Assembly (NCBI GenBank): GCA_019057795.1
Contig: JAHLWS010000056.1
Location: 17,582-81,581, forward strand
Reading direction: 5' to 3'
Source of the DNA: Promethearchaeota archaeon
Lineage (GTDB): Archaea > Asgardarchaeota > Lokiarchaeia > Sigyniarchaeales > SOKP01
DNA length: 64,000 bases
Both the position numbers and the translations under genes were made by a program. Shown here one piece after another: positions 33,122 to 64,000 of this stretch (within the stretch, counting starts at the first letter, position 1; each line of letters begins with the position of its first letter). The notes beneath the pieces were generated by a model. It was not told where the DNA came from. It saw nothing but the letters and a program-made list of their open reading frames with translations, and made no database searches.

Positions 33122-34048
33122 ATGGTTAATTATAAGGTTTCAGATTTTATCGAAGATTTTTTGATTTCGAAAGAAGTAGAAGAAGGGTGTGCGCCATCTA
33201 CCATTAAAGCGTATCGATACGATCTTGAAAAGTTTATTAACCTTGTAGGAGATATTGACCTCGAATCGCCAGTTTTGAGACAAAGGATAAGACTCTTTTT
33301 AAAAAAACTGAAAGATTTAGATTATTCAAAAAAGGGTATAAGTAGAAAAATCGCGTCGTTAAGATCGTTTTTTAAGTTTTTAACTTTAAATGAATTTATC
33401 ACTAAAAACCCTATGGCAACAATTAAATCCCCAAAAATCAAACTAGAAGAGAGCCTCCCTAAATTTCTGGATGTTTCTGACATTGAAGTTATTTTTAACA
33501 AGCTGAACGATTGGAGGCTATTTAATTCAAGAAAGAGTCTAAGGTATTACTTAACTGTGAGATTGTTATATTCCACTATGGCTCGTGTAAGCGAATTGTG
33601 TGACATTAAAATTAGGGATATCGATTTCAAGAATGGATATATAAGGTTAAAAGGGAAAGGGGGTAAAGAAAGGATTGTTCCCGTCGATCAAAAGACTTTA
33701 GAGCTTTTTAAGGAACATTTGAATAATAGGATATCTTATAGTTCTGAAGATTATTTATTGGTTAATACAAGAAATCAAAAATTAAATCCTCGCGTTATTC
33801 AGGCTGATATAAAATTGATAAAAGAAAAGTGTGGATTTCCAGATTCAAAGATTATTACGCCCCACATATTTAGACATACTGGAGCGACGCATCTTAGGCG
33901 TTCTGGGATGGATATTAGTGAATTACAGGACATTTTAGGCCATAGCTCTCCAAATACTACCCGAATCTATGCTAAGAACGATATTACTAAATTAAAGCAA
34001 TCGTATTCAACGATGCATCCATTAAATAATAATGATTTGAAACTGTAA
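33122..34048 (+). CDS. xerA: tyrosine recombinase XerA
   Basis: SAM-like N-domain; R(VSEL), KGKGGKER, HIFRH, LGHSS, Y catalytic residues. Confidence 0.88.
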   Translation: MVNYKVSDFIEDFLISKEVEEGCAPSTIKAYRYDLEKFINLVGDIDLESPVLRQRIRLFLKKLKDLDYSKKGISRKIASLRSFFKFLTLNEFITKNPMATIKSPKIKLEESLPKFLDVSDIEVIFNKLNDWRLFNSRKSLRYYLTVRLLYSTMARVSELCDIKIRDIDFKNGYIRLKGKGGKERIVPVDQKTLELFKEHLNNRISYSSEDYLLVNTRNQKLNPRVIQADIKLIKEKCGFPDSKIITPHIFRHTGATHLRRSGMDISELQDILGHSSPNTTRIYAKNDITKLKQSYSTMHPLNNNDLKL

Positions 34049-59403: not shown

Positions 59404-61359
59404 ATGGAAGAATTTTTAAAAAAATTACAAATTTCAGATAATGCGATGAAACTTTATTTACAAAGCGTTGGTAGAAAACCCTTGTCATCGTTCGAACTAT
59501 ATTCTATTTTACCTAATATCTCTGAAGAAGAATATGCAAAATATTTAAATGAACTTATAGATGCTGGTTTGTTAATACCTATCATTCCTCAAAGCCCAGA
59601 TTTATTACTTCAATACCTAACCATTCCTCCAATTAACCCCATTATAAATTACTACGATAATATAAATGCTAACCTGGACGTCATTAAAAACCAAATACAC
59701 CAATTACTTTCAAATTCTTCAAAGAAAATATTTCAAGAAAATACGATAATTGAATTAGACACCACTTTTAACGCAACCCAAGAATTAAGAAAAGACTTCG
59801 AAGAGGACGTAATTATCCAAAAACAGGATATAGATGATGTTGTTCAGGGAATGGAGAACTTGAAAATAATAAAAAATGTTTTGGATGAGCTACATAAAAC
59901 AATTAAAGGTATAACCCAAAATCAATTTTCTTATTTAATAAAGCTAATTACCACAATTAAAAAGGATTTAAACAAAAAAATCGAAACTTTAGAATTGAAA
60001 AAATCCGAGAACGCCATTAAGAGCGTAATTGAAGACGTGTTTCAAGAAAATTTTGAAAAAATACTTGAAGATTTTACTGATAACTTACATAAATTAATTG
60101 AAGACGAATTTGATAATACAATCGAATCTCTTAATAATATTATTGACTCAACCTTTCAATTTCGGGACGACTTTCAGATGTTATTGTTAAACATGTTAAA
60201 TAGTTATGAATCGAAAATTAATAAAACAATCGAAATGATAAAAAAAAAGCGAAATAATTTATCTAGTGATCTTAAAGATTTCGAAAACATTATTATCGAC
60301 AGTCTTAATGCGATAATTAGTAGTTCAGTCGATTCCGTGGCAGCTTTAAATAATCCTATTAATAAAGCAATGGTAAGTTATTACAAGATTATTACTTCTT
60401 CTGAAAAAGCGAAACTAGATAATTTTTGGCACATTAACAGCGTTTCTAGAGTTAATGAAGAAATATTAAGTAAAATTACCCATGCTAAAGAGAATTTGTT
60501 ATTAGTTGTTCCTAAACTTGGAGATCATTTATCGATAGAAGAATTTAAAAATATCTCGGGAACTCGTAAAATTAAAATTGCTTCTTCGGAGGCACATACT
60601 AATAGCAATGTTAAACAGTTTAAAGAAATTAAAAACTTGGAATATAGAACTCTCAAAAATGAGAGCGTTATCGTTATTAATAGCGACGATAATTACATAC
60701 TTATGGGAATAATACAGAAATATTCACAGGATTCGTTAAAAGATTTTGTCGGATTTGCTACTGATCACGCACCTTTAATTAAACTTATTCTTTCTGTTAT
60801 CAATACAGTGTGGGATAAAGCAAGTTCGAGTCTACACGAAACTCCAAGATCTCTGGGGATAACGACAATTCCAAGAGAAATTACTACTTCCAAAACAAGA
60901 GCAACTATTAAACCGATTACTCCTAGTAGTTTTAAAGCGTCCCAAAAAAAAACAAGTATCTCTCAAACACAAGATATAGTTACGGAATTAACTCAAAAGA
61001 TTCAAGACAAGGTTAAAGAAACTTCACAACAAAAAACTTTAAAACAAGCTCCTAAAGCAACAGATCAGATTCTTAAGGAATCAAAACAGATTCCTAAAGC
61101 TGGCGATGAGGTAGGAATGTTAATCGATACTGCTTTTAAATCGTTAGTTCAAAAGCTACAAAACCTTAATGGAAAGGAATTTAGTACTGAATTAGAAAAT
61201 ATTGCGGAGCTAATTTTGGAGAAAAAAGGATTTAGCGTAACTTTACACAAGTTAAGAAGTAAAATCAACCAATATAAAACCCATTTGGGTCATTTAAGCG
61301 AAGTGGATATTAAACATATTGTTGAAAGTATAGAAGAATGGAAAAAACATCTAATATAA
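59404..61359 (+). CDS. hypothetical protein: TrmB-like wHTH, long coiled coil, PLD/TrmB-effector-like domain
   Basis: N-terminal FLKKLQIS....LY...L..L.D.GLL pattern; heptad-rich middle; AKENLLLVVP / VINSDDNYILMG. Confidence 0.55.
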   Translation: MEEFLKKLQISDNAMKLYLQSVGRKPLSSFELYSILPNISEEEYAKYLNELIDAGLLIPIIPQSPDLLLQYLTIPPINPIINYYDNINANLDVIKNQIHQLLSNSSKKIFQENTIIELDTTFNATQELRKDFEEDVIIQKQDIDDVVQGMENLKIIKNVLDELHKTIKGITQNQFSYLIKLITTIKKDLNKKIETLELKKSENAIKSVIEDVFQENFEKILEDFTDNLHKLIEDEFDNTIESLNNIIDSTFQFRDDFQMLLLNMLNSYESKINKTIEMIKKKRNNLSSDLKDFENIIIDSLNAIISSSVDSVAALNNPINKAMVSYYKIITSSEKAKLDNFWHINSVSRVNEEILSKITHAKENLLLVVPKLGDHLSIEEFKNISGTRKIKIASSEAHTNSNVKQFKEIKNLEYRTLKNESVIVINSDDNYILMGIIQKYSQDSLKDFVGFATDHAPLIKLILSVINTVWDKASSSLHETPRSLGITTIPREITTSKTRATIKPITPSSFKASQKKTSISQTQDIVTELTQKIQDKVKETSQQKTLKQAPKATDQILKESKQIPKAGDEVGMLIDTAFKSLVQKLQNLNGKEFSTELENIAELILEKKGFSVTLHKLRSKINQYKTHLGHLSEVDIKHIVESIEEWKKHLI

Positions 61360-61411
61360 CAAATTTATAGTATAGTTTTAAGTAAATATGACTCTTTTTC
61401 TTTAACTTGTT

Positions 61412-62197
61412 CTAGCTTGACCCTTTTTCCTTTTTTATCGATAATTGTTTAATAACAGAGTTAAGAAGCACCCAACTAAGCGAAAATAAAAAGAAACCTA
61501 AAAATATCAGAGAAATGGTTATAGATACTATAAAATTAGGGTTTAAAATACCAATAATGCCAAATATCGGAGAACATGGAGCTAAAATGATGAATAAGTA
61601 ATAAATGCTTTTACCTTTTTCTCCAAATTTAATGTAAGTAGTAATGTTTAACCATCCAGAGAAAATTAAAAGGAATGGAGTAATAAAATAAGCAATTTCA
61701 AGGAAAGGATAGTTCAACCCACCAAACGCAAACGCGTAAAAATAATTAGCGTAAAAGTAGACGAGGATTACTAAAGTGGTTACTGGTGTTGGCACACCTG
61801 TATACCCGGCACTTGTTGAAATATTGAACCTAGCTAATCTTAATATAGCCCCTAGTGCGAAACAAATACACCCAATTGCTAGAATGTAATCGTAAAACGT
61901 CCCTGTTTTAAACGCCTGAAAACATAGCACGGCAGGTACTATACCAAATGTGAGAGAATCGCTCAAAGAATCGAGTTCTCTGCCGATTTCGTTTACTGTT
62001 CTTGTCTTTCTCGCGATATATCCATCAATTAAATCCGTTCCAAAAGTTATTGAGATTAAAAAAAAACCTAAAGAGATGGCGTCTCGGGTTCCAAATGAAC
62101 CAAAAATTAAAGCAACTAAACCTATTGTCGTCCCAGTTAGAGTAATGTAATCCTTTAGTTTGAGCAAACTTGGTATTGTTGACATTTTTTTTCTCAC
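61412..62197 (-). CDS. pssA: CDP-alcohol phosphatidyltransferase (archaetidylserine synthase-like)
   Basis: DLIDGYIAR..GRELDSLSD..FG, LRLARFN, GVPTP. Confidence 0.88.
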   Translation of the reverse strand: MRKKMSTIPSLLKLKDYITLTGTTIGLVALIFGSFGTRDAISLGFFLISITFGTDLIDGYIARKTRTVNEIGRELDSLSDSLTFGIVPAVLCFQAFKTGTFYDYILAIGCICFALGAILRLARFNISTSAGYTGVPTPVTTLVILVYFYANYFYAFAFGGLNYPFLEIAYFITPFLLIFSGWLNITTYIKFGEKGKSIYYLFIILAPCSPIFGIIGILNPNFIVSITISLIFLGFFLFSLSWVLLNSVIKQLSIKKEKGSS

Positions 62198-62760
62198 TTC
62201 TTTGTTATTCTATATTTAAAAGTTTAGTTTAGTTAAAAAATTTCTTTAAAATCTAAGTATATTTTCTCTCCCATCCTTAAATTTATTAGACTAAATTGAC
62301 TATTGATGATTAAAAACTGAATTTTATTTATAAAGTAGATAATAAGGCTGATATAATGAAATTTTGTCCTAATTGTGGAGATGAAGCTGGAATAGTTCTC
62401 TGAATTTCTTAGCCTTCTCTGGAGAAAGGTGTTGCTCTATTATGGGAAACCGCGATCCGTGAAAAGAAAACTTGTAGATTTTAAACGCTTTTCCTTAGAA
62501 ACGATATTTTTAATTATTTGACCACCTTCACTTTTTATGATCACTCCATGCCTTATAAATAACGCCTAACCGTCATTTTTCTAATTTTCAACAATATATT
62601 AAAAATATATTTAAGTTATCATTCAGTTAGCATTTTAGTTAGCATTATAAAAAATAAAGTTGTAGTGCCCTATCTTTTTTTGTTTAAATTCGGTGAGGAT
62701 AAGAAAACTGAAATAGAGTCTCGATTTAAAATCGCAAGAAAATAAGTGTAATTGAACGTT

Positions 62761-62922
62761 ATGATTAGTCCAAAAAAACGATTTACGGGCGCGTTGACTC
62801 CTAACTACTTCCTAAAAAAGATGGAGTGTTACGAATGCGACGCAAAACGGCATAAGTTGTTCCTAAAAGAAAGCGAAAACTACTTAGAATTGCTCTGTAG
62901 AGATTGTAAAGAAAAGAAATAA
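62761..62922 (+). CDS. small C2C2 zinc-finger protein (53 aa)
   Basis: MISPKK...MECYECDAKRHKLFLKESENYLELLCRDCKEKK*. Confidence 0.45.
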   Translation: MISPKKRFTGALTPNYFLKKMECYECDAKRHKLFLKESENYLELLCRDCKEKK

Positions 62923-63314
62923 TTAAAGTTTAAATGGTCCATATAAAAAGGAAAAATTCTGGCGATACGTTAAACCGGCTACGGGAAAAGATTTAAATAC
63001 TGCGAAATAATTTCTATCCATAGAAAGATAAAATTCGAACAAAACAATCCTTTTGGATTTTTATCTGTCAGTTTTGAAATTGAAACAAGAATAATTGAAA
63101 AAATAGAAATAAGATAGGGAAAACATAACCATGACTCCTGCGTCACCCTGGATTTTTGTCTTTTGGTAGTGCGGTAAGCACTCATCTAATACTCCCCCTA
63201 TTTTGTTTTTGACCTTTTTATTAGGTCGCGACAGCAGGAGTCGTCCTTTCTTTTTACTCTCCTCTCCTTTCCTTCTCTTGTTCTTGCTTAATTAGATTTC
63301 CATTTTTGGCGAGC

Positions 63315-63382
63315 TCGATAATTTTAGCTGTTTTTATCGGTGTGTAGCAAAGTGGTACGGACCGAACGATATACCAAAAAAT
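63315..63382. repeat. 68-bp direct repeat, copy 1
   Basis: TCGATAATTTTAGCTGTTTTTATCGGTGTGTAGCAAAGTGGTACGGACCGAACGATATACCAAAAAAT; 64/68 identical to copy 2. Confidence 0.9.
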
Positions 63383-63436
63383 TAATTTTATAAAAATAAA
63401 AAAAAGAGTTTAAGTGGACCTGCTTAACTCTTATAA

Positions 63437-63808
63437 CTAAGCGTTAACTACGACTATAATCGCAATAACGATAACTATTACGATTCCTACAAAAAATCCA
63501 ATAATGACATCGGGAATGAAATTCGATATGAAAAATGTTCCAAATAGCAAATCTGAGTCTATATAAGAAGTTATAAACCAGTAATGAACGCCCATTACGA
63601 TCGCCGTTCCGAGACCTGTGATCCCTATTAATACTATTACCATGATTATCAAAAACCTTTTGTACTGCTGACTTTCCTCAGTCTTCTTCGCAGCTTTCTT
63701 TTGAGTTCGGGCTGCTTTTTCGAGTCTTACGCAATTTGGGCACATTTTATTGAACTTCTTAAATTGATCGTCCGAAATCTCTTCTCCACATTTACCGCAA
63801 AATGGCAT
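63437..63808 (-). CDS. zinc-ribbon membrane protein
   Basis: MPFCGKCG...MCPNC then two TM helices. Confidence 0.75.
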   Translation of the reverse strand: MPFCGKCGEEISDDQFKKFNKMCPNCVRLEKAARTQKKAAKKTEESQQYKRFLIIMVIVLIGITGLGTAIVMGVHYWFITSYIDSDLLFGTFFISNFIPDVIIGFFVGIVIVIVIAIIVVVNA

Positions 63809-63919
63809 GAATTATTATTATCTAGAATTATATTTAAAATTTATATTGTAATTTCTGTCATGATTTTTAGAATCTCATATTTCAATTCGTTGAATTCGAA
63901 ATTTTCACATTTGTTGAAT

Positions 63920-63987
63920 TCGATGTTTTTAGCTGTTTTTATCGGTGGGTAGCAAAGTGGTACGGACCGAACGATATGCCAAAAAAT
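63920..63987. repeat. 68-bp direct repeat, copy 2
   Basis: Same sequence 605 bp downstream of copy 1. Confidence 0.9.
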
Positions 63988-64000
63988 AGTTAATCAAGAA

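Follow-up and report, generated by a model that had tools for sequence, protein, structure and literature searches.

We analysed a window of 64,000 nucleotides (nt) on contig C56 of the Promethearchaeota genome G000 (G000:C56:17582-81581), at the end of which two direct repeats flank a single small gene. A repeat search of the window identified one strong direct-repeat family, with units at 63296-63382 and 63901-63987 on the + strand, a length of 87 nt, 87% identity, and a spacing of 605 nt. These correspond to the two 68-bp copies with 64 identical positions and a 605-bp period described in the original prediction, and the core identity of 64/68 was reproduced. We use H for the conserved element inside the 87-nt repeat and H1 and H2 for its two copies in the window. 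A 51-nt core (63322-63372 and 63927-63977) differs at one position between them, and a search for this 51-nt pattern with up to 3 mismatches returned only these 2 places in the window and no match in 100 shuffles. A covariance model, R1, matched H1 at 63312-63377 (82.6 bits) and H2 at 63917-63982 (87.2 bits). In H1, the H core at 63322-63372 is preceded by a diverged left arm and followed by ATATACCAAAAAAT, a stretch of the right flank. H2 has GTTGAATTCGAT as its left arm and ATATGCCAAAAAATAGTTAATCAAGAA as its right flank, both of which agree with the H flanks in relatives. Each copy contains a 29-nt imperfect palindrome, TCGGT-GT-GTAGCA-AAG-TGGTAC-GG-ACCGA in H1 (63337-63365) and TCGGT-GG-GTAGCA-AAG-TGGTAC-GG-ACCGA in H2 (63942-63970). 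Folding recovered the imperfect hairpin proposed for the core, namely TCGGT, a 2x2 internal loop, GTAGCA-AAG-TGGTAC, and ACCGA. A TTTTTA tract lies directly 5' of the palindrome (63331-63336 on the + strand in H1, alignment columns 20-25; 63936-63941 in H2). The end of the window, 13 nt past H2, is also the end of the contig.

The single gene expected between the copies is present. It occupies 63437-63808 on the - strand and encodes 123 amino acids (aa), with a zinc-ribbon-like CxxC...CxxC N-terminus and a hydrophobic C-terminal half. Its protein gave only sub-threshold matches in Pfam and no match in NCBIfam, and no viral relative was found. Among 42 genomes of the genus, a full-length match was obtained in G000 alone (contigs C56 and C63), and we refer to it as the orphan gene. 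Of the codon differences between its two copies, 12 are nonsynonymous and 4 synonymous, which gives no sign of purifying selection. A TATA-like box (TTTAAATA, 63831-63838, - strand) ends 22 nt before the ATG, a call that follows the usual archaeal promoter geometry, and the gene is probably leaderless. Just past the stop codon, in both C56 and C63, a terminator-like hairpin (AAGAGTTAAG...CTTAAACTCTT) is followed by T8 (63398-63432, - strand). Because it has its own TATA-like box and its own terminator-like hairpin, the orphan gene looks like a self-contained unit. At the joint between its promoter side and H2, a 21-nt part of the H left arm is duplicated in tandem (ATTCGTTGAATTCGAAATTTT / ATTTGTTGAATTCGATGTTTT; 63885-63929, + strand; repeat family D7, 86% identity, spacing 24), which may be the footprint of an insertion or of replication slippage.

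The region left of the repeats (62.3-63.3 kb) had been described as gene-poor. This was only partly right, as 63131-63255 on the + strand is a copy of a structured small-RNA gene of about 120 nt, here called X, from a Lokiarchaeia family. The 125-nt block (fold z -4.57) lies about 60 nt left of H1 and is characterized by a closing stem GACTCCTGC...GCAGGAGTC, U-rich loops, and internal U5 tracts; a conserved motif, ATAGGGAAAA, is located upstream of it at about 63113-63123. G000 contains 7 X copies by blastn, and an X-containing query matched 33 of the 42 genus genomes. A module of about 160 nt with TATA-like boxes upstream of X (62906-63066 in the window) is common to contigs C56, C63, and C80. 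Further left, a zinc-ribbon open reading frame (ORF) at 62357-62404 stops short after 15 codons. A contig of DNA run X3 takes a different course from 62395 on, and runs X3 and X5 cover 62300-62413 and next to nothing of 62414-62926, a stretch that looks strain-specific or rearranged. No tRNA or tRNA-like gene was found in the window.

Relatives were searched for H by BLAST (60 relatives) and with the covariance model R1, which was built from 12 copies (alignment A2). As anticipated in the original prediction, more copies lie beyond the window: in contig C55, at the end of C63, in four other species genomes, and in six metagenome contigs. The covariance model found 15 copies in 5 of 135 family genomes, all from one Lokiarchaeial genus, in which 5 of 42 genomes carry H. 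G008 has 6 copies, G000 4, G020 and G028 2 each, and G004 1; in G000, one copy ends C63 and another lies within C55, in addition to the pair in the window. An exact-pattern scan of a species-genome collection returned the same four other metagenome-assembled genomes (titled Promethearchaeota or Promethearchaeia), and metagenome contigs contributed 6 further copies. With 75-90% identity between orthologous proteins, the H-bearing genomes are not near-identical strains. When the search was extended to the order (151 genomes), it added 3 borderline matches (G103, G029, and G044; E 0.06-0.09), which were rejected: those in G103 and G044 lie inside coding sequence, and the G029 alignment lacks the outer stem. 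The Rfam 15 covariance models, run on 60000-64000 of the window (both strands, E<=10), gave no match to H and one chance match to a long non-coding RNA elsewhere (E 3.8).

H is about 50 nt long and consists of TTTWAGCYG, a T5 tract, the 29-nt imperfect palindrome, and an invariant GGACCGAA(C) tail. An alignment of 18 copies (A3) yielded the consensus TTTWAGCYG, TTTTTA, TCGGT, GG, GTAnnA, AAA, nnnTAC, GG, ACCGA, AC, with 20 invariant and 10 nearly invariant core columns; columns T21-A25 are invariant in 18/18 copies. The core is 80-95% identical across five species and six metagenome contigs, and the DNA on either side of it cannot be aligned between species. Because the core columns are fixed while both flanks have diverged beyond alignment, H is under selection. 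H is a new, narrowly distributed conserved element beside the X small-RNA family.

In this small group of Lokiarchaeial species, the usual arrangement is a single H per locus, placed 35-100 nt downstream of one X lineage and in the same orientation. X is found in the left flank, in the same orientation, for 15 of 22 H copies, and upstream of H in 5 of the 6 metagenome copies; the right flanks of the 22 copies fall into 13 classes. A syntenic locus, dus - X - H - small ORF - NTase-like genes (other strand), is present in G028 (C65), G020 (C35), and G008 (C9/C10), with relatives in G004 (C200) and G008 (C39). In 6 of 11 genome contexts the next gene on the right converges on H, and in the other 5 a small co-oriented ORF lies there. 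In G008 and G004, a membrane-anchored winged-helix-like protein is encoded next to H. An A-run and a TATA-like stretch directly follow H in the syntenic, or primary, loci; loci with these features behind H are those of G000, G028, G008 type-B, and M066/M068. Between X and H, other ORFs were found in G008, one of 56 aa on C9 and one of 765 aa on C10.

The association with X is loose on both sides. Only C56 among the 7 X copies of G000 has H directly behind it, and X stands without H on C62, C49, C66, C71, and C80. H lacks an adjacent X on C55, in M063, where X is replaced, and in a half copy on G008 C38. The C55 copy (about 52 nt) and the half copy are short solo copies; a diverged copy on G028 C77 has X in its left flank and so is not solo. 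Since each of the two is found without the other (X-like matches in 33/42 versus H in 5/42 genus genomes, from separate searches), H is not a constant or required part of the X unit. Orthologs with an empty site were sought for two copies. For the solo C55 copy, synteny with the one close ortholog, G020 C215, breaks off some 60 nt to the left of H, leaving the boundaries undefinable; on G008 C39, the flanking genes have no orthologs and X alone matched. The locus could not be followed into relatives without H through its neighbours p94 and p342, which are themselves restricted to the H-bearing group of genomes, and in G150 a p342 relative is present with no H nearby. G000:C75:2150-2330 holds a remnant of the type-B right flank and promoter that follow H in G008 and G004, although H itself is missing there. 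On one side of this remnant stands a degenerate X-like 3' stem (GGCAGGAATCGCC), which precedes it, and behind it comes a short ORF similar to the beginning of the neighbouring G008 gene. In G028, 6 kb right of H, a 499-aa ORF (C65, L043, 16180-17679) looks like a group II intron reverse transcriptase/maturase when its translation is read by eye.

Three paralogous loci of G000 bear on how the orphan gene came to be bracketed. The window has the layout X - short spacer - H1 - gene - H2; C63 reads X - long spacer - gene - H, and C80 reads X - short spacer - no H - same right flank. Over its last 617 nt, C63 shares 96.3% identity with the window end. The identity between C56 and C63 increases from 80.6% in the upstream module to 90.4% in X, 96.3% in the gene, and 100% in the last 141 nt. 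H1 is absent from C63, where 30 unrelated-looking nt stand in place of 87 nt of the window. In C80, X and the short spacer end TTAATTAGA are directly followed by ATATGCCAAAAAATA, the H right flank without the 72-nt H block. The long spacer of C63 resembles the X-H spacer of G020 C122 by eye, MAFFT aligning these spacers only in part, and has an ancestral look. Because C63 keeps the long spacer and the window has the short spacer and H1, C63 is on this reading not a deletion derivative of the H1-gene-H2 form, which argues against a simple site-specific insertion of a circle carrying gene and site.

H1 and H2 are each other's closest relatives, as they have in common a G at alignment column 36 that occurs in none of the other 16 aligned copies. 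The right flank of the H2 type (ATAT.CCAAAAAAT...TTAATCAAGAA) and the left arm GTTGAATTCGAT are also found at H in G028 and metagenome contigs, so H2 is probably the resident copy. The arrangement in the assembly was further examined with Logan unitigs of DNA run X2, which may itself be the source sample of the assembly. Coverage was 10-17.6x for C56-specific, 14.7-21.1x for C63-specific, and 31.3x for shared sequence, compared with 16.9x for the 46-kb flank. These values fit a single genome in which two loci collapse into a repeat of two copies, which accounts for both contigs stopping there. The shared unitig starts at 63819 and extends 465 nt past the window end. A 300-nt unitig spans X, H1, and the end of the gene with no differences, so the H1 arrangement is not a scaffolding artefact. 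A synteny search for the next contig led to the end of C69, where the genes downstream in G028 have their ortholog, next to NTase-like genes, but no overlap exists.

From these comparisons, the simplest history that we can propose has three steps. The orphan gene would first have landed between X and H, as in C63, and the locus with the inserted gene would then have been duplicated. Recombination or gene conversion with an ordinary X-H paralog could subsequently have produced H1-gene-H2, with the join formed at A/T-rich microhomology just right of H1. On this basis, the bracketing is best read as a rearrangement among paralogous X-H loci and not as integron-like capture.

Two drawings of the H palindrome fit equally well, namely a stem-loop and a duplex site whose arms of 11-12 bp enclose a centre of 5-7 bp (11-7-11 or 12-5-12). 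H1 and H2 fold on the + strand with -10.2 and -13.8 kcal/mol (z -0.67 and -3.0). Across all folded copies the values range from -6.7 to -14.3 kcal/mol (z -0.5 to -3.5), which is an ordinary stability. The 11 proposed pairs are formed in 89.9% of alignment cells versus 12-38% when the partner is slid by 1-3 columns. Two double substitutions in the upper stem preserve pairing: at pair 36-44, one row (G028) has A-U in place of C-G, and at pair 37-43, four related rows have U-A in place of C-G. The covariation is above that of all shuffles (0/500 reach the observed value) and amounts to two events. At the same two pairs, six rows with an unpaired single change stand against five pair-preserving rows (2 events). 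Variation gathers at the centre-proximal positions 36, 37, and 41-44, with no change in the outer arms or in GTA/TAC; the 5' arm varies in 9 cells, and every copy has the same AAA loop, 3' arm, and tail. An upstream helix (GCYG/CGGU) and an extended TATCG/CGATA pairing were rejected, as they are not kept across copies.

We consider H a putative protein-bound DNA palindrome, an assignment that is tentative and somewhat doubtful. The 11-12-bp arms around the 5-7-bp centre would form a duplex site for a dimeric protein. Placed between the end of X and the rightward promoter-like stretch, this site could serve as a regulatory operator or upstream site. The concentration of variation near the centre with fixed outer arms, the excess of unpaired single changes over pair-preserving ones, and the modest fold stability point in this direction, as does the A-run with a TATA-like stretch after H in the loci of G000, G028, G008 type-B, and M066/M068. 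The GGACCGAAC tail follows the T5A tract at about 22 nt. Together with the invariant AAA, the T5A tract and the C/G step ahead of GGACCGAA would presumably match the spacing of archaeal TATA, -10, and start site (22 nt from tract to G), which we take as a lead only. The combined explanation of a cis element H, a rearrangement among paralogs, and a DNA-site role is the best one we can offer and is held with less than full conviction, closer to an open question than to a probable account.

Several points weigh against this explanation. The join between paralogs is deduced from sequence comparison. The solo C55 copy and the G008 C38 half copy need a copying mechanism that neither the paralog rearrangement nor a DNA site supplies. 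The two double substitutions keep complementarity, with covariation beyond 500 shuffles, and a stem-loop accounts for them more directly than a protein-bound duplex. A symmetric operator would also not usually show conservation as asymmetric as here, where the right arm and tail are invariant and the left arm has 9 varying cells. In the 6 of 11 contexts with a converging right-hand gene, there is consequently no co-oriented gene to regulate. Finally, H has no co-occurring DNA-binding protein.

Alternatively, H may act as an RNA stem-loop, either in an independent small transcript or as a 3' module of the X unit, in which a U-rich tract would be followed by a protein-bound terminal hairpin, a layout loosely like an 'Sm site plus 3' stem-loop'. 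We regard this as possible, if doubtful. A duplicated leader or ncRNA, one of the options in the original prediction, is still a candidate. It is favored by the two pair-preserving double substitutions and the gap between 89.9% pairing and the 12-38% of slid partners, by the invariant AAA loop and adjacent U5 tract, and by the 15 of 22 copies that lie close to X, always in one orientation. The U5 tract need not stop transcription in these organisms, because X itself carries internal U5 tracts. However, the hairpins are of ordinary stability (z -0.5 to -3.5), Rfam gave no match, H occurs away from X (C55, C63, and M063), and X occurs without H in five G000 loci and most genus genomes. On the + strand, A.C mismatches exceed G.U mismatches 7:1, and the - strand was considered as the folding strand on this ground and rejected. 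Such an excess is expected when only the 5' half varies and does not tell the strand: the outer-stem changes are all in the 5' half, and 4 of the 5 possible transitions there give it.

The original prediction named the recombination site of a cassette array first, and an array is not supported: the two sites in the window lie 605 bp apart with the contig ending 13 nt after the second, and no other contig (5 genomes, 6 metagenome records) has more than one. A recombination role of H is nevertheless kept as a rival, one that we judge unlikely. It supposes that a circular unit of gene and H joined a resident H and left a copy at each junction, through a host tyrosine recombinase such as XerA or through another enzyme, the X-H spacer being an insertion hot spot. 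H1 and H2 are direct repeats with identical centres, which suits this proposal. Foreign ORFs stand between X and H elsewhere (56 aa in G008 C9, 765 aa in G008 C10), X is replaced in M063, the G008 C38 copy breaks inside the core beside the centre like a hybrid site, and C80 and C56 differ by the 72-nt H block between identical flanks. The layout also fits the definition by which tyrosine-recombinase sites were searched, namely imperfect inverted repeats of 11-15 bp with a spacer of 4-10 bp (PMC2958812). Against it, only one bracketed gene is present among the 22 copies, with no contig carrying at least 3 copies, and break points are scattered over columns -25 to +10 on the left and 58 to 125 on the right. 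The inserted gene has its own promoter and terminator, and C63 keeps the long ancestral spacer and does not look like a deletion product by eye. The original prediction had proposed empty or excised forms as a check: alleles lacking a copy exist among the paralogs (C63 without H1, C80 without H), but no 605-bp skip joint was seen. No joint skipping 63315-63920 was present in the contigs of the three DNA runs X2, X3, and X5, contigs being prone to drop rare forms.

A recombinase had been another feature to look for. The only tyrosine recombinase of the window (33122-34048, + strand) is an XerA equivalog (NCBIfam 239 bits, cut-off 220), a housekeeping type, and lies 30 kb away. It reached 99 bits against the integron-integrase model TIGR02249 (cut-off 265), in a scan of this one among the 4 tyrosine-recombinase (PF00589) matches of G000. 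The covariance model found no H near any of these 4 or the 2 Y1-transposase matches of G000, and two integrase types traced through the genus are distributed unlike H. We observed on C82 a 304-aa tyrosine recombinase (G000:C82:124003-124914) and, 2.3 kb downstream, an 80%-identical copy of its last 60 residues (121511-121690) broken by two stops, a pattern that may mark an integrated element with its attachment site inside the integrase gene. Taken further, H would be the crossover site of a small Lokiarchaeia gene-capture system that lies behind a small-RNA gene, takes in self-contained orphan genes, and leaves one copy per junction, driven by a host recombinase such as XerA or dependent on the hairpin; this we consider rather improbable.

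That H is the end of a small transposable element with IS200/IS605- or PATE-like subterminal hairpins, or a MITE/REP-like palindrome moved in trans, is very unlikely. The passenger gene of C56 does lie between direct-repeat hairpins, C55 and G008 C38 have short solo copies (a half copy in the latter), paralogs differ in presence and absence, and the genome has Y1-transposase matches. Yet the 2 Y1_Tnp loci of G000 contain no H at E<=10 (TnpB was not searched for), neither terminal inverted repeats nor duplicated target sites were read at the solo copies, the copies have differing boundaries and are very few, and in C63 the gene comes with one H only. The C55 copy moreover includes 5 nt of right flank of the G000 type, as would be expected from the copying of a segment but not from transposition. 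The weakest proposal, a functionless H in a simple, neutral local duplication limited to two copies, can draw on the H1-gene-H2 form being unique to this contig but is scarcely credible for an element that is structured, present elsewhere, and 80-95% identical in its core across five species and six metagenome contigs with flanks beyond alignment.

Three kinds of known repeat were likewise set aside. A viral or plasmid att site was rejected, as 0 viral contigs matched the H pattern and the orphan gene has no viral relative. A CRISPR-like repeat, already discounted in the original prediction, was rejected on the 605-nt spacing and on the unrelated 30-nt repeat of the G000 arrays; these arrays lie at C3:4741-5948 and C19:37-243, with a repeat ending in ATTGAAAC. 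The core motifs of attC sites are RYYYAAC (R'') and GTTRRRY (R'). The palindrome ends read TATCGGT ... ACCGAAC on the + strand and GTTCGGT ... ACCGATA on the - strand, and no such pair stands at the hairpin, as had been noted before; an attC site was rejected on motifs and length.

Should H be no more than a small stem-loop or a regulatory palindrome, it adds little, and in one lineage only, to what is a poorly known non-coding repertoire in Asgard archaea, and is chiefly useful as a marker of one X small-RNA locus lineage. At least 3 different ORFs occupy the X-H spacer in different loci, and if this spacer is truly a preferred landing place, it would offer a concrete, testable site for orphan-gene acquisition in these archaea. 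The locus also indicates that structured direct repeats around one gene can come from rearrangement of paralogous loci without cassette machinery.

Among known systems, integron attC sites measure about 55-140 nt, and the palindrome in H has 29 nt. H further differs from them in lacking the R''/R' motifs, in having two sites only, and in the absence of an IntI match, the nearest recombinase being the XerA equivalog. Unlike a cassette, the gene here has its own promoter and terminator, and H is normally single and beside an RNA gene. Shared with attC are the direct repeats of an imperfect palindrome around one small ORF, together with the fact that Asgard archaea carry integrons; Ghaly et al. 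2022 (PMC9668308) describe archaeal integrons as mostly CALINs (attC clusters without integrase), including those in Asgard metagenome-assembled genomes. Archaeal dif sites are defined (Cortez et al. 2010, PMC2958812) by 11-bp inverted arms and a 6-bp spacer. H resembles dif/Xer sites and IMEX in its arms of about 11 bp around a short centre, the XerA gene in the window, and a unit between two like sites. In contrast, dif is single-copy and conserved among relatives, whereas H has 1-6 copies per genome in 5 of 42 genus genomes. The ends of IS200/IS605 elements and PATEs carry hairpins in direct orientation, and REPs are solo extragenic palindromes, often behind gene 3' ends. H has similar imperfect hairpins, in direct orientation at both ends of a short unit, and solo extragenic palindromes as well, but differs in its lack of transposase association, very low copy number, and inconsistent boundaries. 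Operators and upstream sites of archaeal transcription factors are palindromic. H departs from them in being asymmetric and conserved over 47 nt, with two symmetric double changes and no cognate factor assigned; what it has in common with them is a conserved intergenic dyad next to a TATA-like sequence, in few copies per genome.

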